The notes under the pieces were generated by a model. The model was not told the DNA's origin, ran no database searches, and saw only the letters and a list, made by a program, of their open reading frames with translations. The position numbers and the translations under genes are program-made. A stretch of 64,000 nucleotides of DNA from Candidatus Hydrothermarchaeota archaeon (GTDB lineage Archaea; CAYFZR01), in contig JBHIEG010000002.1 in the NCBI GenBank assembly GCA_046760505.1, positions 43,030 to 107,029 of the forward strand, given 5' to 3'. Positions 16,196-43,222 of the stretch are shown one piece after another. Position 1 is the stretch's first letter; the number at the start of each line of letters is the position of its first letter.

Positions 16196-16936
16196 ATGTT
16201 TGTCACCATTTTGGGAACCGGAGTTTTGATTCCCGAGCAGAACCGGGCACAGGCAGGTATCCTTGTAGAATCAGAGGATACTCTGGTTTTGTTTGACTGC
16301 GGGAATGGTGTTCTGAAAAGAATAATCCAAGCAGGATATGACCACGAAGATATACAGCACGTGTTCATTTCGCACATTCACATAGATCATACGAGCGATA
16401 TACCGCCTCTCTTGGGAGCTAATTTTTTAAAAGGAAAGCTTGATTTTAAATTGTACGGACCAAAGGGCACAAAAGACTGGCTAACTAAGATACTCGAAGC
16501 ATACGACTACATTGAGAGAATAAACTTCCAAGTCAATGAAATAAAGGATGAAGAACTCATCGAATTGGGAGACCTTAGGATAAGATGCAGATATGTTTCT
16601 CACGGAGTTCCTTCCCTAGGCTTTAGAATTGAATGCGACTCTTCCATGGTTTATTCAGGCGATACAGAAACATGCAACGGGATGAGAGATCTATGTTCGA
16701 AGAAAACAGATTTGTTGATTCACGAATGCTCTTTCCTGGATGATTTTCCCCGCAGATACGGACACACGACGCCTTCTGCCCTATCTGAATTTTTAAAGAA
16801 TTTGAATGTAAGCTCTTTGATCGTTACCCACATTTATCCAGAATCAAGACACGAAGAGCTTATAATCAAAGCCATAAGGAAGAATTATCAGAATGAATTA
16901 ATGATCGGTGAGGATCTGCTCAGGGTAGAAATATAA
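16196..16936 (+). CDS. MBL-fold metallo-hydrolase, RNase Z-like
   Basis: LGTG, DCG.G, SHIHIDH, YSGDT, HECSF, TH. Confidence 0.9.
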   Translation: MFVTILGTGVLIPEQNRAQAGILVESEDTLVLFDCGNGVLKRIIQAGYDHEDIQHVFISHIHIDHTSDIPPLLGANFLKGKLDFKLYGPKGTKDWLTKILEAYDYIERINFQVNEIKDEELIELGDLRIRCRYVSHGVPSLGFRIECDSSMVYSGDTETCNGMRDLCSKKTDLLIHECSFLDDFPRRYGHTTPSALSEFLKNLNVSSLIVTHIYPESRHEELIIKAIRKNYQNELMIGEDLLRVEI

Positions 16937-17667
16937 TGGATGCAGTAATCTTGGCCGCTGGAAAGGGAAAAAGACTCATGCCAATAACTGAAAGGATTGC
17001 AAAACCTCTTTTACCAATAGATGGTAAGCCAGTAATAGAGCAAATAGTTATTTCTTTAAAAAAATTGGGTTTTAAACGTATTTTTATAATAATCGGACAT
17101 CTTGGAAACCAAATAGAAAAATATCTTGGAAACGGATCGAAGTATAATATAAAGATAGAGTACAGAAGACAGGTTCCTCTGGGGACCGCTCATGCACTGA
17201 GATGCGTAGAAAATGATATAAAGGGAGACTTTCTGGTAACAGCAAGTGATTCCATATTCCCTTTAAGCCATATCAGAGACTTGGTTAAGAAACATAAGAA
17301 AGAGAGATGCGATGCGACGATAAGCCTAAAAAAAGTAAATATTAAAGATATACCATCCATGAGTACCGTAACTCTGCAAGGAGACAGAATCTTAAAGATA
17401 GTAGAAAAGCCAAAAAAAGGACAAGTGTTGAGCAACATTTCCGCATCCCCCCTATATGTTTTTGGCGATGTTGTTTTTGATTTCTTAAAAGATGTAAGAA
17501 TATCTGAAAGAGGAGAATACGAGTTACAGGACGCTATTCAAAAAATGATTGATTCTAACTTATGTGTAAAGGGGGTATTTTCTGAGAAATGGAAGCATCT
17601 TACAGATATAAACGATCTGATCGAACTGAACTTTCCTTATCTCATAGAATTCATGAAAGATCTGTAG
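16936..17667 (+). CDS. Sugar-phosphate nucleotidyltransferase
   Basis: LAAGKGKRL.P.T....KPL, LGTAHA, VEKP, RGEYEL. Confidence 0.9.
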   Translation: MDAVILAAGKGKRLMPITERIAKPLLPIDGKPVIEQIVISLKKLGFKRIFIIIGHLGNQIEKYLGNGSKYNIKIEYRRQVPLGTAHALRCVENDIKGDFLVTASDSIFPLSHIRDLVKKHKKERCDATISLKKVNIKDIPSMSTVTLQGDRILKIVEKPKKGQVLSNISASPLYVFGDVVFDFLKDVRISERGEYELQDAIQKMIDSNLCVKGVFSEKWKHLTDINDLIELNFPYLIEFMKDL

Positions 17668-17719: not shown

Positions 17720-19270
17720 ATGCACATGAACTTAATAAAGCTCTTGTCGGGTTTATTGCTACTTATTACTTCCTACCTTGCTGGTGAAAGCCTGATTTTC
17801 AAAAAAGTTTCACTTTTAAATCCTTACTTTGATAATCTGTTATTTGCATTTGCAATTGTATTTCCTATTTTTTTCTTCTCTAGGAAAGATGGGGAAATAA
17901 AGGAAAACAATGATTTTATATTGATTTTTTTAACTGTTTTTTCTCTCATATTCAGACTTTTTTTTAGAAGTAAGGGTCTTCTGCATATGGATTCTATTGC
18001 GTACATAGGGTCAGCAAAAGGACTTATAGAATCAGGAAGGCTGCAATACGCCCATTCTCCGGGCTATCCGGGTGTAGGAATTATATTTGGGCTCTCTAAT
18101 CTCTTCTTGGATCTTCCAATGGATAGAGTTTCAATATACACGTGTGCAATAATTGGATCTTTATCTGTTCCTTTGATGTATCTTTTTGCCTTTAGATTTA
18201 CCAAAAACAAGAGAATTGGCCTCATTACAGCTCTACTTCTTATGGTAAATCCCTTACACTGGTCTCTGAGCGAGCAAGCCTTGGGCGACGTCCTCTCTTT
18301 TTTCTTCTTAGTTTTTAGTGCTTATATGCTTACCTTCAATAATAGGGTAAGGATACTAAGCGCGCTGGTATTTGGAGTAGCCATTGCCATTAGATTGACA
18401 AACATATTGTTCTTTCCGTTTTATCTCTTTTTGCTCGTGAGAGAAAGAAAAATTAATTATATTCTAGCAGGCTCTATTTTAAGCCTAACAGGATTTTTTT
18501 TCTACATTCCTGCATACCTCATGCATGGATTTGAGTACTTCTTAAGCCCAGTAGTTTATAACAGGTTTTTCCCAAAGTTGTTTCTTTCAATAAAAGACTA
18601 TCTCTTGGACATTTTTTGTGTTTCCCTTAGCACAGCTTTCATTCCTCTCACCCTATTTGGAATAGCAATAATTTTGAGGGACAGGAAATACTTCCATCTT
18701 ACTGCTTTGGCTCTATGGATTTTTCCATACTTCTTTTACTTCGGAAATATAATCACCTTTTCTGCGAGATTTTTCCTCCCGATTATTGCTCCACTCTTGC
18801 TCTTAATGGCCGTTAGTCTAAGTAAAATAGAGAAAAAAGCAGGGATGCTTCTTGTCCTCTTTATAATTACACAATCTATGGGTTATATTTATCCTGTTTT
18901 AGATTCACGTGCAACTCATTCTTATCAGGAGGAATTCGCCCTTTTTGTAAAAAATAACACTGAAGAAGACTCATTAATCATTGTAAGTGAGGAAAGAGCC
19001 TTTATTAGCTATTATGGAAACAGAACCACAATTCCTACAAACGTATCGTTAACAGAATCATATCTCAAGGAGGGAAAACCAGTCTACTTGATCTCCAGTG
19101 CATTTTTCACAAGAGGAGGAAGAGAAAAAGAAGAGAAATTTAAAGAAAATTTTAACTTTACATTAATTGGAACTAAATTAAACGAAGATTTTCACCATAA
19201 ATCCATATATTCTGGATTTTTCGATGAGTATCTCTATGAATTAAAATTAAAGAATACCACAAAAAGTTAG
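17720..19270 (+). CDS. GT-C/PMT-like membrane glycosyltransferase (DUF2723-like)
   Basis: More than 10 TM segments, D....Y...HSPGYP loop, RFFLP motif, soluble C-terminal domain. Confidence 0.7.
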   Translation: MHMNLIKLLSGLLLLITSYLAGESLIFKKVSLLNPYFDNLLFAFAIVFPIFFFSRKDGEIKENNDFILIFLTVFSLIFRLFFRSKGLLHMDSIAYIGSAKGLIESGRLQYAHSPGYPGVGIIFGLSNLFLDLPMDRVSIYTCAIIGSLSVPLMYLFAFRFTKNKRIGLITALLLMVNPLHWSLSEQALGDVLSFFFLVFSAYMLTFNNRVRILSALVFGVAIAIRLTNILFFPFYLFLLVRERKINYILAGSILSLTGFFFYIPAYLMHGFEYFLSPVVYNRFFPKLFLSIKDYLLDIFCVSLSTAFIPLTLFGIAIILRDRKYFHLTALALWIFPYFFYFGNIITFSARFFLPIIAPLLLLMAVSLSKIEKKAGMLLVLFIITQSMGYIYPVLDSRATHSYQEEFALFVKNNTEEDSLIIVSEERAFISYYGNRTTIPTNVSLTESYLKEGKPVYLISSAFFTRGGREKEEKFKENFNFTLIGTKLNEDFHHKSIYSGFFDEYLYELKLKNTTKS

Positions 19271-19292: not shown

Positions 19293-19955
19293 CTATTTTT
19301 TCATCTTCCTTGATATGAAGAATGCTCCGATTATCACTAAGAATACAACTAACATTATTCCAACGTAGTTGGTTGGAAAGTTACCTGTATTTTCATCTCT
19401 TTCATACGTAAACTCGATCCTCGGATCCACCAGTTCATAGTACCATATCTCATTGTCTGTTCTAAAGTCATAATCTGGAGAAACAGAAAGAATTTTCACA
19501 TTCTTGGGGAAAATATAAATTCTTTTAGTCTGAAGGTAGTATCCCTGTCTAATGCCGCTTTCCAGCCTTCCACTTCCGAACAAAACGTATTTTTCATCTT
19601 CCTTTCTCACGTAGTTCTCTAGGTTATACCAAACTTCCGCTATGTATTCTCTATTTCCAGGAGAAATGTCAGCGGTAAACTTCATGGTAAAATTTTTTAC
19701 AATGACCCCCCTCTTGCTCCAAGCATCCTTCAAATCTTTTAGAGACTTTCCGCTGTTATATTCGTTTTTCATTTTTTCTAGCTTTCTATAAGCATCGGGC
19801 TCGGATGGAGGAGTATCTGGTATGATAGAGAATTTTCCGTAATACGAGACAATTCCATTCTCATGGATCGTATAAGTCCCCGAATACTCGTACAGTAATT
19901 TAGATGTGGTCGGTATGGCAGATAATGCTAAAAAGATGAGGAGTAATCTTTTCAT
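19293..19955 (-). CDS. Secreted protein with C-terminal membrane anchor
   Basis: N-terminal signal peptide, beta-rich body, C-terminal TM plus RKMKK tail. Confidence 0.7.
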   Translation of the reverse strand: MKRLLLIFLALSAIPTTSKLLYEYSGTYTIHENGIVSYYGKFSIIPDTPPSEPDAYRKLEKMKNEYNSGKSLKDLKDAWSKRGVIVKNFTMKFTADISPGNREYIAEVWYNLENYVRKEDEKYVLFGSGRLESGIRQGYYLQTKRIYIFPKNVKILSVSPDYDFRTDNEIWYYELVDPRIEFTYERDENTGNFPTNYVGIMLVVFLVIIGAFFISRKMKK

Positions 19956-20016: not shown

Positions 20017-20292
20017 TTAATCCATTGGCTTGAGTCCGGTTAATCTGTTCCTTATTATTGCGAGTTCATCTGTTGTTAAAGAAAAGTCTGAGCGCAACAT
20101 AAAGAACTTGTTTTCAATATAACTTACATGGTTCCATAACAATAAGTTTAGAAATAGGCTCAAACCAGCTACCAGAATTAACTCCAGGCGGATGAATAGG
20201 TTATCCTCAATCGGGATGATTCTTAATTTCTGCAGTACAATAAAAAAGACAGATAAGATCACGATGAAGGGTAACTTTGCTCTCATAATCAA
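20017..20292 (-). CDS. Small 2-TM hypothetical protein
   Basis: 91 aa, two hydrophobic segments. Confidence 0.5.
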   Translation of the reverse strand: MIMRAKLPFIVILSVFFIVLQKLRIIPIEDNLFIRLELILVAGLSLFLNLLLWNHVSYIENKFFMLRSDFSLTTDELAIIRNRLTGLKPMD

Positions 20293-20363: not shown

Positions 20364-21065
20364 TCAAATGCGTATCCGTTCAGCTTTCTTTAGGGCACTT
20401 ACGGTAAGCTTGTGGTATCCAAAAACAGGCTTAATTATTATATCAGCTGCATTTATCCTCTCAAGGTTCATGTCACCTAAAACATCCACTACAACGTGTC
20501 TTAATCCTTCTTCGCAGTAGCCTATTAAAACTGGCGTCCTTGCGTCGAGCATCTCTTCGTACCTCTTCTCCAGTGTATTGTATTCCACCGATGAGTCATG
20601 ATGGACTACTCTCACGTTCAAGCCATCTTCTATTGATGCGGGGCGTATTTCTATGTATCCATCTTTAAATCTTTCCTTAACCCTGTTTTTTATAGTGAAA
20701 TATTCGTCTTCTCTAAGTTCCTTCCTATTTTCAAGCAAAAGTCTCCAAACATCTCCTCCCGCTCTGCCATCTCCACTTCCAAGGACTACTGATGGAGAGA
20801 ATCCATCTCTTACTGCATCTCTATGGGAGGGTCTCGAGGGGTCGAACGATGAGATTCCTCTGATATCACAGTACATGTTTAAAATTCGAAGGGTACCCAA
20901 AATATGCTCTACAAGATACGCCGCTTTTTTGTTCTCCCTCAAATCCACCCTTTCATATGCTTTTATGACCTTGCTTACGGATGGAACTATTCCGTTCAGG
21001 TATATTTCATTTGAGGGTTTAACCTCCAGAGTTTGGGTGGATATTGTTCCGCTAACTGTAAACAT
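20364..21065 (-). CDS. LpxC-like Zn-dependent deacetylase homologue (substrate unknown)
   Basis: Collinear LpxC motifs VEH, DG.A, ART, RH...D..GD, G.H. Confidence 0.7.
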   Translation of the reverse strand: MFTVSGTISTQTLEVKPSNEIYLNGIVPSVSKVIKAYERVDLRENKKAAYLVEHILGTLRILNMYCDIRGISSFDPSRPSHRDAVRDGFSPSVVLGSGDGRAGGDVWRLLLENRKELREDEYFTIKNRVKERFKDGYIEIRPASIEDGLNVRVVHHDSSVEYNTLEKRYEEMLDARTPVLIGYCEEGLRHVVVDVLGDMNLERINAADIIIKPVFGYHKLTVSALKKAERIRI

Positions 21066-21122
21066 CTTTAATTCCCGGGATTAAACTTTTATATAATGTT
21101 TTATAAACTTTCTTCGAGAAAT

Positions 21123-22148
21123 ATGAATCCTCAGGTAATTCAAGAGATAGTTAAAAGTTTAAGAGATATAGAGGAGAAAAGGAGGCGTATCGGCGAAAAA
21201 ATCCGATCTCTGAAAAACGACTTATCCAAATCTTTGATATTAAAGGTAAACCCGCATCCTCTAGACCGCTTAACCGTCTTGGGAGTTGATGGGTCTATTG
21301 TTTCTCACGAGTATCATGATCTCCTGCTAATTATGGTCAGGAGTATAGCGGTTTTTTTCTCTTTCGAAGACAACACGCTGTCAGAATGCTTCTATTACCC
21401 CAATTCCACTCCAGAAATCGAAGTATGTCCGATATACGGTTTTCAATCGGATGAGATAAAGAGTATATCTTCCCAAAGGAGGTTGGAATCTGAGGTTAAA
21501 ATGGCAATTGAAGCAATAGATGAATTCAAACCTGATATAATTTTACTTGATGGGTCTATAGTGCCTCAAATATCCGATAAGCCAAAGAAAAAATTAATAA
21601 GGCTGTATGAGAAATTATATGCAAGGTGTATGGATGATGGCCTGTCCTTGGCTGGTGTAATCGAGGACAGCAGGGGTACGAGGTTCGTAAATATGTTGCT
21701 GAACGAAATCATGCCAAATAAATTCAAAGACAAAGAAGAGTTCTTTCAAAAATCAAATGACACCAACATATTGAACCATGTCCTCGATGCCGGAGAAAGG
21801 ACATTCGGTTTTCCGTATTCTGATGCTCCAGGAGATCACCCGGTTTTGAAGGAATTTGATCCTGAATACGCAGGAAAAATTTACTCATTTTACATGAAAA
21901 CAGTGGATTTTGATAGACCCCTCAGAGTAGAATACTTAAGACATGATAACGATGATTTCATAGCAGGAACAGTGTTCTCATTATCTATGTTTCATTCGGA
22001 CTATGGCTTTCCCAGTATTTTAATAGAAGCCGATGAAAGAGTCAGAATCTCAAGGAAAGATCTAGACCACCTTTACAGAGTTCTCATAGAAGAACTCGGA
22101 GACATATCTTCAATTATGCGTATGAGGAGGGAAAGAAGACCATTTTAA
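21123..22148 (+). CDS. nurA: DNA double-strand break repair nuclease NurA
   Basis: GVDGS, LLDGS, GV.EDS, YGFP..LIEAD; adjacent to herA. Confidence 0.92.
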   Translation: MNPQVIQEIVKSLRDIEEKRRRIGEKIRSLKNDLSKSLILKVNPHPLDRLTVLGVDGSIVSHEYHDLLLIMVRSIAVFFSFEDNTLSECFYYPNSTPEIEVCPIYGFQSDEIKSISSQRRLESEVKMAIEAIDEFKPDIILLDGSIVPQISDKPKKKLIRLYEKLYARCMDDGLSLAGVIEDSRGTRFVNMLLNEIMPNKFKDKEEFFQKSNDTNILNHVLDAGERTFGFPYSDAPGDHPVLKEFDPEYAGKIYSFYMKTVDFDRPLRVEYLRHDNDDFIAGTVFSLSMFHSDYGFPSILIEADERVRISRKDLDHLYRVLIEELGDISSIMRMRRERRPF

Positions 22149-22158
22149 AGGTGATTGA

Positions 22159-23667
22159 ATGAAAGAGATAGGAACCGTAATATCTGAACCAAGCCCTTCT
22201 CCAAGCGAATTCGCTTTTGTATTAAACGTTGATGGTTTGGCAGTAAGAAAGGGAAATTTTGTACAGTTAGAAACAGAAGAAGGAACAATGATAGCAAATG
22301 TGAAGGATTTATACAAATCTAACCGATATTTTGAGAAAGCAGAGACGGTGAGAGAATATGAAAGAAGTGGAAGGCCTTTAAGCAGCATATTCCCCGCACC
22401 CCGATGGGAGATAACGGTCGGAATCGCTAGACCACTTGGAGTTTTTTCATCCGAGACTTTGAATCGAGCAACCTATCCTCCATCCACAGGTACAAAGGTG
22501 TATCTAGCAGATGAAGGTTTGCTTTCCAAATTTTTGGGAAGTGAGGAGAATGGTATTAATGTAGGGACCTTAAGGTTTCATGATCTTCCAATAAAATTGA
22601 ATATGACTCGATTGTTTCAAAAACACCTTGCCATACTGGCTATGAGCGGAGCAGGGAAATCTTATCTTGTTTCTGTACTTTTAGAAGAGTTACTGAGCAG
22701 GAAAGAGGGGGGAAGGCTCGGCGTAATAATATTTGATGTTCACGGTGAGTATACGGGATTTTCAACAATCCCTCCTCAAGGGTATGTTGATTACAGCGGG
22801 AGTGTCAATGTATTTTCTGGGGAAGATATAAGTATTGGCGTCCCTAATTTAAGTGCAGGTGATTTCTCCAAGTTATTGCCCAATATAACACCCGTTCAAA
22901 AAAGAGAATTGAGCAGGATTTTGAACAACCTCAAAATGACCTTTGACTCATATTCACTAGAAGATATTGTCGAATTTATTCAAAAAGATCCTGACATGAA
23001 CAAAAAAACAAAAGAGGCGATGATAAGCTGGCTTATTGGACTGGATGACCTGGGTCTATTTGGAAAATACGATTATCCTTCTCTTAAAAAAATAGTCGAG
23101 CCAAGAAGGGCAACGATTTTCGACCTAAGCGATATAATCGATATGCAAAGGAAACAAATAATAGTTGCTCACATAGCGAGAAGACTCTTCAATCTAAGAA
23201 GATCTGGAGAAATTTGTCCATTTCTCATTGTTTTAGAGGAGGCACACCAGTTTATACCAGAAGGAGAAAGAGTTGCAAGAATAACAAGGGAAATATTTGA
23301 AACCATTGCAAGGGAAGGAAGAAAATTCTATGCTTCCCTTTGCTTGGTAAGCCAGCGACCAATAAAACTCTCAACAACGGTTCTCTCTCAGTGTAACACC
23401 CATATAATTCTAAGGGTGACAAATCCCTACGATCTCGACCATATAGGAAGGTCATCAGAGGGAATCACTCGAGATGTTCTGGACCAGATATCTACCCTTA
23501 GAGTCGGCGAGGCTCTGATTGTTGGAGAAGCTATAAATCAACCGATATTTGTAAAGGTAAGAGAGAGAACTTCACAGCCACCGTTGCACAGTCTAAGTCT
23601 TGAAGAGGCGTGCATACTCTATGAAAATAAAGAAAAAGAAGAGCTAGAAGATTCTGACATATACTGA
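22159..23667 (+). CDS. herA: HerA helicase/translocase (HAS barrel + DUF87 ATPase)
   Basis: KHLAILAMSGAGKS, DVHGEY, LEEAH, REGRKF, SQRP. Confidence 0.92.
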   Translation: MKEIGTVISEPSPSPSEFAFVLNVDGLAVRKGNFVQLETEEGTMIANVKDLYKSNRYFEKAETVREYERSGRPLSSIFPAPRWEITVGIARPLGVFSSETLNRATYPPSTGTKVYLADEGLLSKFLGSEENGINVGTLRFHDLPIKLNMTRLFQKHLAILAMSGAGKSYLVSVLLEELLSRKEGGRLGVIIFDVHGEYTGFSTIPPQGYVDYSGSVNVFSGEDISIGVPNLSAGDFSKLLPNITPVQKRELSRILNNLKMTFDSYSLEDIVEFIQKDPDMNKKTKEAMISWLIGLDDLGLFGKYDYPSLKKIVEPRRATIFDLSDIIDMQRKQIIVAHIARRLFNLRRSGEICPFLIVLEEAHQFIPEGERVARITREIFETIAREGRKFYASLCLVSQRPIKLSTTVLSQCNTHIILRVTNPYDLDHIGRSSEGITRDVLDQISTLRVGEALIVGEAINQPIFVKVRERTSQPPLHSLSLEEACILYENKEKEELEDSDIY

Positions 23668-24312: not shown

Positions 24313-24726
24313 TTAATCAACCCAGTACTCCTTAGATTCTGTGTATTCTTTCTTCCATATGGGTGCTTCTTCCTTTAGACGATCTATCATTTCTCTGACT
24401 GATTTAAAGCATTCTTCTCTGTGCCTAGAGGCTACAACGATATATATAATGTCTTCGCCGGGATATAATTCCCCTATTTTATGTGCTACTCTTATATCCA
24501 ATATGCCGTATTTTTCCATCAATTCTTCGATAATCTCATCCAACTTGGATTCAGCCAATTCCCTGTAACTGTCGAATTCTAACTTCATTACTCTTTCATT
24601 TTCAGATAATCCCCTCACCACACCAATGAAACAGCAAATCGCTCCGCATTCATTTTTGTTCTTTTTAATATCCTCAATTAATTCGCTTATCCCGGGAACT
24701 TCTTCGTCGACAATAACTCTCCTCAT
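24313..24726 (-). CDS. moaE: Molybdopterin synthase catalytic subunit
   Basis: GA...F.G.VR, H..G.L..GE, HR, K..APIWKKE. Confidence 0.93.
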   Translation of the reverse strand: MRRVIVDEEVPGISELIEDIKKNKNECGAICCFIGVVRGLSENERVMKLEFDSYRELAESKLDEIIEELMEKYGILDIRVAHKIGELYPGEDIIYIVVASRHREECFKSVREMIDRLKEEAPIWKKEYTESKEYWVD

Positions 24727-24998
24727 AAAAAGCCACCAGAAACAGGGGGAAATATTGCAATTTCATCGTTTTCCCCTATTTTTTTATCTATTTCATCTAT
24801 TTTTACTATTTTGCTGTTCAACAGTATGGTAACGTAATCCCTGAGATTTCCCCTCTCGTCAAATATGAGTTTTCTCATTTCGTCTCCGTACTGATCTGCG
24901 ATTTCATTTAAAATCTCTTTTATGGTGCCTCCTTTAATATTTTCTTCTCTTTTTTTAGTTTTCTCTTTGAACACTGCAAAATATTTTACCTTAGGCAT
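24723..24998 (-). CDS. moaD: MoaD/SAMP ubiquitin-like sulfur carrier, di-Gly followed by FL
   Basis: V.YFA.F, C-terminal IAIFPPVSGG-FL. Confidence 0.88.
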   Translation of the reverse strand: MPKVKYFAVFKEKTKKREENIKGGTIKEILNEIADQYGDEMRKLIFDERGNLRDYVTILLNSKIVKIDEIDKKIGENDEIAIFPPVSGGFL

Positions 24999-40423: not shown

Positions 40424-43222
40424 TTAGTCCCAGAATCTTCTTGTTCTGGCAAATGTTCTCTCTGCTTCAATCAAGTCTTTCAAAAAACCTTCATAATCTT
40501 TATTTTGAGAGAGTACCCTTGAGCCTATCTCTGGACCCACTCCTCTAGCAGCTAATGCAATCAAGGCTCTCTTACCATAGTTCATATAGAGATTTGCTGT
40601 CTTCCATGCCTTCTTTACTTTTTCCTGCTCCTGTTCATCCAGTATTTTCCCATTTTTATATTTTTTAATTAATCCCGGCATTTCTTTGTCCCAAGTTCTT
40701 ACTATTGCTAAAAACTTTGATCGGCAATTCGGACACGCCATGTCATCTGGCACACTCTTTATTCTTAGAGTTGTGTTCCATTTTCCACAGTAAACACAAA
40801 GAAGCATGACTCTTTCATTAAGTAATCTGTTTTCGACTATCTTCAATATCGCTCTGTCTGCCCTTTTGGGAGACATGAGTTCTCTGGTTGCATCCATACC
40901 AAGTCTTGATATGGGCGATAGAGTAGATGTCCTTACTACTGAAAGCTTAATTTCTCCACTTTTTAATTTTTCAAGTACGTACTCCGCTTTCTTTATGTCA
41001 AGTTTCTCCTGCAGTAGTTCTCTAAAAGTTTCCTCGTAAAGAGGAGTATTATCATACAGAGCAAGAGCCTTTTTTACGTCGAAATCACTTAGGGTGGCAT
41101 CCTTTTCAATCACGCCGAATCTTCTACATACATGCAGTAATTTCCAGAAAAACATTGGACTGCGCTTTAAGGTCTTCTCTAATATTAAAGATAGATGACT
41201 CGGTTCTAGCATATCTATTATCTCCAAAAAAGCCTCAGGTCTGTTTACTGGCAGCTCAAAAATGATTCGATACGGATCTACCTGCAAAGAAACACTTGCT
41301 CCGAACCTTGCTGTTAAAAGGTCTGCAATAATTCTTCCCAAGGTTTCATTTGTTAGAGAGCCAAAACACGCGTTAACTATAATGTAGTTATCGCATATTT
41401 CAACCACAATCTCATCATGAGAGGCGAGAGGTACACCTAATTTTTTATGCTGATTTATTTTGTTTATGGCTCGCAATATAGATTTCTCATCCACAGGATA
41501 ATGTTTGCAGAAGATTTTTGCGATTTCCTTTGGTTTTAGATACTCCAGATATTTCATTATCATTTTCCTAACGTAGCCGACTTCTTGAGCCACTTCAAAG
41601 GGCACTGGAATCTCTTCTCCTACCCACGAGGGAATAGCCCCCCTTACCTCATCTATGTTTTGAACCACTATCGTATCATCTTTTACATCAAGAATCTGCC
41701 ATGTATGGCCTTTGCATATAAAAGTAGTACCTATTTCAGCGTAATTTACCACAAAAGATTCATCCAGTACGCCAATCGGACCTTGGGAGACGTCATTTAT
41801 TTTATACTTCTTTTCATCAGGTATCATGGAGAGATTCTGATAGTAGTAGGTCCATGTTGACCTTGTTCGGTAAACCTTATCTCCGTATGTCCGCAATAAA
41901 CCTGATTCGGATAGGATAGATAATACTTCATCGAATTTTTCTCTAGAAAGTGTTTTAAATGGATAGGCTCTTTTAATTATACGGTAGATTTCTTCTTTAC
42001 TAGTATCGGATTTATCCAAGGTTATCCCTGCTATTTGATGAGCAAGTACGTCTAAAGGATTTTGATGGATTTTTGGGTCTTCTAAGTTCGCATTTAATGA
42101 CCTTCTTGAGATAACCATTGATTCCAAGATATCATCCGCATTTGTTGAGATAATCACTCCTCTGCTCAATCTGTCAATGCCGTGGCCCGATCTACCAACT
42201 CTTTGAATTAATCGGGTCACCTGCCTTGGGGACATGTACTGTATAACCAGGTCCACAGATCCAATATCGATTCCAAGTTCCATGGAAGAAGTGCAAATTA
42301 TGCCTTTTATTTCTCCGCTCTTAAATGCGTTCTCTGTATCTATTCTCACTTCCTTAGAGAGCGAGCTGTGATGAACAGATAAAGGAATGTCCTTGTCAAT
42401 GAGCCTAAATCGTGAACCCAGTATCTCTGCCAATTCCCTTGTATTTACAAAGATCAGGAGAGAAGTGCATTCTTTCATGAGTTCTTTTATTCTCCTTATT
42501 CTTGCTCCAACCGCCAAAGGGGTGTGTAAAATAGAGGCAAGTTCTCTATCTCCCTTTTTTAAAATTGGACTTTCTACTTCAAGAGATAGTTCCTTTGAAA
42601 CGTTCACCTCTAAAATTTCTACGTTTTTACCTAGGAAATCTGCTATTTTTTCTGGGTTTCCTATCGTAGCGGAAAGTCCTATTCTCTGGAAATTTGGTCT
42701 AATTTCCTCCAACCTTTCTAGAGCAACAGTTAATTGAGACCCTCTCTTATTATCCGCAAGTTCATGTATTTCGTCTACAACTACCCACTTCAAAGATTTA
42801 AGATTCTCTCTCATCCTCTTACCTGGAAGTATTGCTTGCAGCGTCTCAGGGGTGGTTATTAAAATGTCTGGGGGAGCCTCCCTTTGTTTTCTTCTTTCAG
42901 CACTTGTTGTATCCCCATGCCTCACTGAGATAGAGATGCCTAACTTCTCGCACCACCACCTCATTCTCTCAAGTAAATCTCTATTGAGAGCTCTCAGGGG
43001 AGTTATGTAAAGAATTTTAATCCCTTTTTCTTCTTCACCTGATTTCAATAACATATCGAATACTGGAAGGAGAACTGCCTCTGTTTTTCCCATACCTGTT
43101 GGTGCCACCAATAGAAGGTTCTTTCCTCTCAGAATTAATGGAATCGCCTGTGTCTGGGGTTCAGTAAACCTTTCAAACCTCGAATCAATTAAATTTTTGA
43201 TACGCTCTGAAAGCAGATCCAT
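40424..43222 (-). CDS. lhr: Lhr-family SF2 helicase with C-terminal Zn finger
   Basis: APTGMGKT, TPETLQ, DEIH, SAT, QRVGRSGH, CxxC...CxxC, RRFWD end. Confidence 0.93.
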   Translation of the reverse strand: MDLLSERIKNLIDSRFERFTEPQTQAIPLILRGKNLLLVAPTGMGKTEAVLLPVFDMLLKSGEEEKGIKILYITPLRALNRDLLERMRWWCEKLGISISVRHGDTTSAERRKQREAPPDILITTPETLQAILPGKRMRENLKSLKWVVVDEIHELADNKRGSQLTVALERLEEIRPNFQRIGLSATIGNPEKIADFLGKNVEILEVNVSKELSLEVESPILKKGDRELASILHTPLAVGARIRRIKELMKECTSLLIFVNTRELAEILGSRFRLIDKDIPLSVHHSSLSKEVRIDTENAFKSGEIKGIICTSSMELGIDIGSVDLVIQYMSPRQVTRLIQRVGRSGHGIDRLSRGVIISTNADDILESMVISRRSLNANLEDPKIHQNPLDVLAHQIAGITLDKSDTSKEEIYRIIKRAYPFKTLSREKFDEVLSILSESGLLRTYGDKVYRTRSTWTYYYQNLSMIPDEKKYKINDVSQGPIGVLDESFVVNYAEIGTTFICKGHTWQILDVKDDTIVVQNIDEVRGAIPSWVGEEIPVPFEVAQEVGYVRKMIMKYLEYLKPKEIAKIFCKHYPVDEKSILRAINKINQHKKLGVPLASHDEIVVEICDNYIIVNACFGSLTNETLGRIIADLLTARFGASVSLQVDPYRIIFELPVNRPEAFLEIIDMLEPSHLSLILEKTLKRSPMFFWKLLHVCRRFGVIEKDATLSDFDVKKALALYDNTPLYEETFRELLQEKLDIKKAEYVLEKLKSGEIKLSVVRTSTLSPISRLGMDATRELMSPKRADRAILKIVENRLLNERVMLLCVYCGKWNTTLRIKSVPDDMACPNCRSKFLAIVRTWDKEMPGLIKKYKNGKILDEQEQEKVKKAWKTANLYMNYGKRALIALAARGVGPEIGSRVLSQNKDYEGFLKDLIEAERTFARTRRFWD

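Follow-up and report, generated by a model that had tools for sequence, protein, structure and literature searches.

LpxC is, to our knowledge, treated in the field as an enzyme peculiar to bacteria that make lipid A. For the Escherichia coli enzyme we take His79, His238 and Asp242 to be the zinc ligands, Glu78 and His265, together with Asp246 and Thr191, to be the catalytic residues, and K143, K239, K262 and F161 to be contacts with uridine diphosphate (UDP) or its diphosphate. This study concerns an LpxC-like gene in a 64,000-nucleotide (nt) stretch of archaeal DNA (the window; positions 43,030 to 107,029 of contig JBHIEG010000002.1, assembly GCA_046760505.1, Candidatus Hydrothermarchaeota archaeon). 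An open reading frame (ORF) in the ORF listing of the window, at 20364-21065 on the minus strand, begins with ATG and specifies a protein of 233 amino acids (aa), which is a genuine, very divergent homologue of LpxC and a member of the LpxC superfamily. The fold is otherwise known only in lipid A synthesis, and the protein represents a new, rare and unannotated archaeal branch of it; the gene probably encodes an LpxC-fold zinc amidohydrolase. The LpxC fold is described as a two-domain beta-alpha-alpha-beta sandwich (PMC5454807), in which Insert I closes over the glucosamine (PMC13492277) and Insert II (Phe192-Ala215), a beta-alpha-beta element, makes up most of the acyl tunnel (PMC13492277; also PMC5454807); LpxC is stated to have no human homologue (PMC13492277).

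Homology and Predicted Structure

Homology and a shared fold with LpxC are established by the agreement of profile, hhalign, AlphaFold2 and Foldseek evidence. Searching 1.84 billion cluster representatives by phmmer with the window protein (family member P0001) gave 36 matches at E ≤ 0.001, of which 14 reached E ≤ 1e-10, and a family alignment of 32 sequences was assembled from 31 of these 36 and a congener with 80% identity (P0002). Three fragments (P0031, P0033, P0035) were excluded, as were P0029, with insect allergen repeats, and P0036, with HEAT repeats, which were rejected as repeat-driven false positives. A word-indexed profile search for the family recovered 4 proteins only. The congener aside, identity to the window protein across the family is 24-37%, and all 32 sequences agree in eight columns (E53, H54, G96, P142, H190, D194, D198 and H218).

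The LpxC structures of Aquifex aeolicus were matched by the profile of this alignment with 47 bits (E = 1.4e-11), in three colinear blocks within which the EH pair, the H-x3-D-x3-D motif and the last His each align with their LpxC counterparts; among the matches listed, 24 of the 25 Protein Data Bank (PDB) sequences at E ≤ 10 were LpxC. Pfam family LpxC (PF03331) was matched at E ≤ 1 by 22 of the 32 members, the best at 8.8e-9, and five also matched Ribosomal_S5_C. Alignment of the family profile with E. coli K-12 LpxC by hhalign gave E-values of 2.7e-4 (local) and 3e-6 (global, over 208 columns). AlphaFold2, run on the 32-row alignment, produced a model with a mean predicted local distance difference test (pLDDT) of 96.1 and a predicted template modelling score (pTM) of 0.93; this model was used in preference to that from the single sequence (pLDDT 33). 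Foldseek matched it to 54 PDB entries at E ≤ 0.001, the best 50 of which were all LpxC, with query-normalised template modelling (TM) scores of 0.68-0.75 (about 0.72), a probability of 1.00, an E-value of 3.4e-12 and 13-18% identity, so that within the best 50 of 54 matches the model resembles LpxC structures alone.

Weighing against homology, the single protein scores 12.1 bits (E = 0.13) against PF03331, where the cut-off is 27, and the match covers residues 184-205 only. No NCBIfam model matches the window protein, and a single-protein phmmer search of the PDB gave only a chance match to YgiW (E 0.4). The ESM Atlas gave no useful information, as its own model of the protein is poor (pLDDT 0.33), the structural matches have TM below 0.4, and the feature matches (0.86, below 0.9) are unrelated peptidases. 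Comparison with Pfam, one of the checks proposed when the gene was first read from its sequence alone, therefore gave a divided answer, the single protein staying below threshold while the 32-sequence profile finds LpxC structures. The sub-threshold score explains why the protein escapes automatic annotation, although the LpxC call made by eye was right.

Predicted Active Site and Inserts

Every motif that the sequence-only reading had quoted in LpxC order was present on re-translation of 20364-21065, the sub-ranges re-translated being RVD (39-41), EH (53-54), GSGDGRA (96-102), T177, HVVVDVLGD (190-198) and YH (217-218). Aligned with E. coli LpxC, residues E53 and H54 (20904-20909, minus strand, as are all features of the protein) take the places of E78 and H79 and are invariant in 32/32 sequences. 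T177 (20535-20537) corresponds to T191 and is Thr in 20 and Ser in 12 of the 32. The motif H190-x3-D194-x3-D198 (20472-20498) supplies the equivalents of the ligands H238 and D242 and of D246, each conserved in 32/32, and H218, in the pair Y217-H218 (20412-20417; H 32/32, Y 31/32), that of H265. The expectation that all zinc ligands and catalytic residues are retained was thus borne out across the family, with T or S at position 177 in 32/32. The positions of the UDP contacts, in the global alignment, were not conserved across the 32 members: K143 is replaced by G136 in the window protein (family G 17, N 8), K262 by P213 (L 24, P 5) and F161 by H155 (L 12, the remainder mixed). At the position of K239 the window protein has V191, as had been noticed, and Ala is commoner in the family (A 22, V 5).

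The gene is under strong purifying selection, the ratio of nonsynonymous to synonymous divergence (dN/dS) being 0.064 relative to the same-genus orthologue, which is 80% identical, with dS near saturation at 1.85.

Insert II is absent. Between T177 and H190 there are 12 residues, compared with 46 between T191 and H238 of E. coli LpxC, or 34 fewer, and in the model this linker (PVLIGYCEEGLR; 20499-20534), which stands in place of Insert II and a further strand, consists of a four-residue helix (178-181) leading into the long helix of H190, with no beta-alpha-beta element. Alignment and model therefore agree with the sequence-only reading, which had seen that the spacing from ART to RH was shortened and the acyl passage lost. 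A region resembling Insert I may be kept in outline, with model strands at 33-36, 40-44 and 47-50 that are colinear with Aquifex residues 23-90, but its loop is shorter, with a 17-residue gap relative to E. coli in the global alignment, and it bears a different conserved motif. This motif, R39-V40-D41 (20943-20951), is near-invariant (R 31/32, V 30/32, D 30/32), precedes the EH helix, and lies opposite 'STD' of Aquifex LpxC in the family profile alignment.

A 25-residue segment (residues 71-95; 20781-20855) has no LpxC counterpart, as hhalign leaves a 21-residue gap in E. coli LpxC opposite it. Its consensus, WDFxRPxHRxAxxxGLxPxxVxG, is among the best-kept parts of the protein (R78 31/32, A84 30/32, P91 28/32, D75 27/32) and includes a helix (79-86) in the model. 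This conserved insert and the two near-invariant arginines, R39 and R78, are new relative to LpxC.

Compared with LpxC of Aquifex (1P42) and E. coli (4MDT), the archaeal protein therefore shares the fold, the order of zinc ligands and catalytic residues, and possibly a three-stranded element like Insert I. It differs in having about 14-18% identity (Foldseek), a length of 233 aa where LpxC has about 270-305, and no Insert II; it carries instead its own 25-residue insert after the helix-strand unit of the first domain. The equivalents of the basic residues K143, K239 and K262 are not basic in the archaeal family. LpxC works in the Raetz pathway, whereas no other lpx genes were found in the archaeal host.

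Host Genome and Distribution

The genome to which the window belongs (G000) comprises 2.17 Mb in 142 contigs and is, by marker genes, 100% complete and 5.67% contaminated. Profile searches of this genome gave 0 matches each for LpxD (PF04613), LpxB (PF02684), LpxK (PF02606) and the C-terminal domain of LpxA (PF13720), which was used because a generic hexapeptide search cannot identify LpxA, and the positive controls matched; PF03331 gave 0 matches at E ≤ 0.001. The check for lpxA, lpxD and lpxB that had been proposed from the sequence thus found none of them, nor LpxK. Together with the sub-threshold Pfam score, the missing Insert II and the unconserved UDP contact positions, this absence of a pathway places the protein outside LpxC proper (PF03331, EC 3.5.1.108).

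The contig is 107 kb long and the G+C content of the window is even, at 0.34-0.43. Genes around the ORF are archaeal, coding for an S-layer protein, an adenosine-specific kinase, NurA, HerA and MoaE (Pfam), and the whole surrounding gene order is also present in the second species of the genus, so a chimeric contig is unlikely. The phylum-level group of G000 consists of two species in one genus within a collection of 199,900 species, and both carry the LpxC-like gene; sampled archaea outside this genus are related to G000 at the domain level only.

The family is rare and has so far been seen only in archaea, the genome samples being archaeal. Three overlapping samples were searched. A spread archaeal sample gave matches in 8 of 401 genomes (3 of 268 genera), a sample of the Asgard phylum in 8 of 301 (4 of 70 genera), and the Hydrothermarchaeota-type phylum in 7 of 38 (3 of 21 genera). 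Within carrier groups the gene is fixed, in 4/4 genomes of an Asgard genus, 3/3 of an Asgard family (f146), 5/5 of another genus (g140) and 2/2 of the window's own phylum. Carriers comprise Asgard archaea, Bathyarchaeota, Hydrothermarchaeota and the two-species phylum of the window. The named members are listed as 'hypothetical protein' in Candidatus Bathyarchaeota, Candidatus Odinarchaeota and Promethearchaeota archaea, and named loci with the gene occur in metagenome-assembled genomes of Candidatus Pyrohabitans and Hydrothermarchaeota; these members support the taxon labels used here, other genomes being joined to them by 64-100% identity and shared gene clusters. A maximum-likelihood tree of the archaeal homologues, as had been suggested, resolved four subclades, with the window protein among the Hydrothermarchaeota-type sequences (support 98/91), and neighbourhoods vary by lineage.

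Two of the Hydrothermarchaeota-type profile matches (G685:C66:1969-2673 and G694:C6:6454-7137) each contain one in-frame TAG; the ORF call for the second is an uninterrupted frame of 227 aa, so that its TAG may fall shortly before the start codon.

The database sources attached no functional name to the family, and the literature on LpxC in archaea or Asgard gave no description of it, although supplementary tables, such as those of asCOG or arCOG, could list it. The search for LpxC together with Asgard found one paper, which mentions bacterial LpxC-FabA fusions only.

Gene Context in Other Lineages

The neighbourhoods compared included those of six named genome loci and two metagenome loci. 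No glycosyltransferase or sugar-nucleotide gene recurs beside any family member examined. A gene for pantoate kinase (PoK), in contrast, lies beside or near the LpxC-like gene in three lineages other than that of the window. In Odin-type genomes c43 and an ECF-S-like membrane protein precede the LpxC-like gene, which is followed on the same strand by genes for an AsnC ligand-binding protein, a pantoate kinase-like GHMP kinase, a hexapeptide protein and Dfp, in that order; the match of the membrane protein directly upstream to ECF-S (E 1.9e-4) is below the cut-off. G404 has c43, the LpxC-like gene and PoK, the last two overlapping by 4 nt, and in a metagenome locus of a different subclade (L032) a cluster of PanE, a pyridoxal phosphate (PLP)-decarboxylase and a PoK-like gene is found 4.3 kb from the LpxC-like gene. 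The PoK model identified exactly one gene per genome in five carriers, and in G013 and G404 this is the adjacent copy; PoK scores in the carriers were below the equivalog cut-off, as they were in all four archaeal control genomes.

Archaea are reported to use PoK and phosphopantothenate synthetase (PPS) in place of pantothenate synthetase and pantothenate kinase (PanK) on the way to coenzyme A (CoA) (PMC6650551, PMC7883664), and for this reason an amidase that splits imported pantothenate would be a logical entry for salvage. PPS (PF02006) is encoded next to PoK in the window's genome, on a contig other than that of the window, as well as in G195 and each of the three f146 genomes. PanB was found in 0/5 of the carriers first tested, and overall was not found in 15 of the 16 tested; type III pantothenate kinase was found in 0/5. 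In the Asgard sample PanB was present in 236 of 301 genomes as against 0/8 carriers (0/4, 0/1 and 0/3 in three families). Across the same sample PanB was not found in 65 of 301 genomes, and whole families are without it (e.g. 0/5, 0/7, 0/4). This context hints at a role in the metabolism of pantothenate or CoA precursors, but it is a lead and not a finding.

Several observations weigh against a CoA connection. PPS was not found in 4/4 Odin-type genomes or in G404, though the route needs it, and in the window's genome PoK and PPS are on a different contig from the LpxC-like gene. The window's own subclade shows no such pantoate kinase context. Neighbours in Hydrothermarchaeota-type genomes are unrelated to CoA or to glycans; some of these loci have an ArsA/Get3-like ATPase, a cytochrome c7-like protein, fumarase, or proteins like CobB/CobQ and BtpA, and others a PRC-barrel protein together with genes of sulfate reduction. 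In f146 some 26 kb separate PoK from the LpxC-like gene. PanB is present in one carrier (G693), and the L032 lineage encodes PanE and so probably makes pantoate itself. PanB is rare among Hydrothermarchaeota-type genomes (9/38) and does not discriminate there, being found in 1/7 carriers and 8/31 non-carriers. The carriers are also kin, so that the PanB counts amount to approximately three independent Asgard lineages, and 57 PanB-less Asgard genomes are without the LpxC-like gene.

The four Odin-type genomes (G013, G036, G080 and G058; loci L024-L027), which are 93-98% complete, have PoK and Dfp clustered and PPS was not found in them, an apparent gap in their CoA pathway.

In three Asgard lineages the gene immediately upstream of the LpxC-like gene encodes one of the uncharacterised proteins grouped as c43, of 350-430 aa; in f146 the distance is 6-200 nt. 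In the neighbourhood comparison they were at L045:3761-5047, L042:10008-11237, L024:10593-11642 and L044:6430-6831, all on the minus strand. They were considered as a second amidase of the M20 (ArgE/DapE-like) type, but the NCBIfam match (E 7e-9) was far below cut-offs, there was no Pfam match, and comparison with a DapE structure gave E 0.35. Given this marginal similarity and the lack of any invariant His, Asp or Glu, c43 is not called an amidase. A single-protein c43 query had no match in G000 or G013, but the query is insensitive, as blastp had grouped the Odin neighbour with c43. In f146 a gene for a Ras/Roc-type small GTPase lies immediately downstream of the LpxC-like gene and convergent to it (L042:8698-9228 and L045:2436-2996, plus strand).

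Proposed Function and Alternatives

The explanation that accounts best for these observations, and in which we have good confidence, is that the family consists of cytosolic, mononuclear Zn2+-dependent amidohydrolases, divergent homologues of LpxC that use its chemistry on a substrate other than its own. We infer metal binding, catalysis and substrate class for the archaeal protein from its alignment with LpxC. The zinc ion would be held by H54, H190 and D194, with E53 acting as general base on the zinc-bound water, and H218, oriented by D198, could together with T177 stabilise the oxyanion and protonate the leaving amine. The absence of Insert II and of a lipid A pathway, and the lack of conservation at the UDP/diphosphate contact positions, argue that the substrate is not UDP-3-O-acyl-N-acetylglucosamine (UDP-3-O-acyl-GlcNAc). 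The enzyme probably acts on a small soluble amide, and likely an anionic one given R39 and R78, which lie next to and within the conserved 25-residue insert.

Among candidate substrates, pantothenate or a related pantoyl or beta-alanyl amide is possible but must be regarded as tentative. The enzyme would hydrolyse an amide so as to feed the PoK/PPS route to CoA, for example by splitting pantothenate into pantoate and beta-alanine, and would allow external pantothenate to be salvaged by archaea that have PoK and PPS and no pantothenate kinase. The gene orders in Odin-type genomes, G404 and L032, with a single-copy, adjacent PoK, the ECF-S-like protein in Odin, and the failure to find PanB in nearly all tested carriers or type III PanK in any of five, are consistent with this, and the two near-invariant arginines could bind a carboxylate. 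A candidate functional analogue, proposed on gene context, would be the pantothenase of Pseudomonas fluorescens, for which there is no sequence to compare and whose protein is stated to be unidentified (PMC10393543). This link comes from neighbourhoods in other lineages and not from the window, and, besides the missing PPS, the absence of the context from the window's own subclade, the PanB of G693, the PanE of L032 and a PanB association that the kinship of the carriers confounds, the pantoyl group far exceeds acetate in size. Somewhat less probable again is the substrate proposed by the sequence-only reading, which saw an N-deacetylase for non-acylated GlcNAc, as UDP-GlcNAc, GlcNAc-phosphate or a glycolipid head group, working with a nearby nucleotidyltransferase and GT-C protein. 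The sole characterised relative, LpxC, does deacetylate a GlcNAc derivative, the catalytic set is retained, as is, possibly, a region like the Insert I that closes over glucosamine in LpxC (PMC13492277), and genes for an NTP_transferase (16936-17667) and a PMT-like GT-C protein (17720-19270) lie 1-4 kb away. Both, however, are encoded on the other strand and converge on the LpxC-like gene, and their adjacency was seen in the same-genus genome only, the Odin, f143, f146, Hydrothermarchaeota and L032 loci all being without it, so the proposed partnership was not upheld. With no sugar gene recurring beside the family members examined, and the equivalents of K143, K239, K262 and F161 not conserved, what survives of that proposal is a tunnel-less, LpxC-like amidase in an archaeon without lipid A, and a GlcNAc or UDP-GlcNAc substrate is disfavoured. 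PIG-L/LmbE and CE4 types are other GlcNAc N-deacetylases of archaea and bacteria; their folds are unrelated, any likeness would be an analogous metal-dependent N-deacetylation, and neither was among the Pfam or NCBIfam matches at E ≤ 10.

The two remaining alternatives deny a new enzymatic activity altogether. It is very improbable that the protein is a non-catalytic, binding or regulatory pseudo-enzyme of LpxC fold: its catalysis is deduced from conserved residues, and the Asgard partner c43 has no conserved His, Asp or Glu, but all seven catalytic or metal positions have been kept among sequences that, the congener aside, are only 24-37% identical to the window protein, which argues for selection on catalysis, and dN/dS is 0.06. 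That the gene is a bona fide lipid A LpxC, brought in by contamination, a chimeric contig or recent transfer and acting on UDP-3-O-acyl-GlcNAc, can be practically discounted. A weak Pfam match and a contamination estimate of 5.67% might suggest it; the gene is, however, surrounded by archaeal genes, for S-layer, adenosine-kinase, NurA and HerA proteins, on a contig of 107 kb with an even G+C content, the second species of the genus has the same gene order, Insert II is absent, LpxA, LpxB, LpxD and LpxK were not found in G000, and no canonical LpxC is among the 36 phmmer matches.

The preferred explanation, a divergent zinc amidohydrolase, has consequences for LpxC itself. Since the archaeal family keeps the catalytic residues in the absence of an acyl tunnel or a lipid A pathway, the LpxC fold appears to support a second reaction. 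The family offers a natural, minimal LpxC scaffold for asking what Insert II contributes, and bears on the evolution of the first committed step of lipid A synthesis, as it may resemble a soluble ancestor of bacterial LpxC to which Insert II was later added. If the lead from gene context holds, a gap in the supply and salvage of CoA precursors in archaea would be filled. The most specific form of this proposal, that this is the first branch of the LpxC superfamily outside LpxC itself, a minimal, tunnel-less zinc amidase of archaea, Asgard lineages included, that supplies pantoate and/or beta-alanine to the PoK/PPS route, is on present evidence rather unlikely; if true, it would provide a sequence for the orphan pantothenase-type activity and an entry point for vitamin B5 salvage in archaea that have neither PanK nor PanB.

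Other Features of the Window

Upstream, the LpxC-like gene shares a divergent intergenic region of 30 bp (21066-21095) with nurA, in which inspection of the sequence showed a TATA-like element, rich in A and T, that precedes each of the two start codons by about 22-30 nt; it may serve as a two-way promoter. NurA (350 aa) and HerA (502 aa) are encoded at 21096-23667 on the plus strand. Downstream, and also on the minus strand, are genes for a hydrophobic 91-aa protein with a TTG start (20017-20292, after a gap of 71 nt) and for a 220-aa protein with an N-terminal signal-like and a C-terminal hydrophobic segment (19293-19955, after a gap of 61 nt). Both proteins are without a Pfam family and are conserved in the same genus only, and their genes are possibly co-transcribed with the LpxC-like gene. 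An Rfam scan of the window gave no match, and a scan for sigma-70 promoters and terminators gave nothing above shuffled sequence, although these are bacterial models that do not apply to archaea. Ordinary archaeal genes on the minus strand specify an S-layer-like protein (PF05124, 13451-15013) and an adenosine-specific kinase (PF04008, 15037-15591). Further along the same strand (24313-24998), MoaE (137 aa, PF02391) is followed by an overlapping ORF of 91 aa that ends in Gly-Gly-Phe-Leu, and which looks like a MoaD-like partner.

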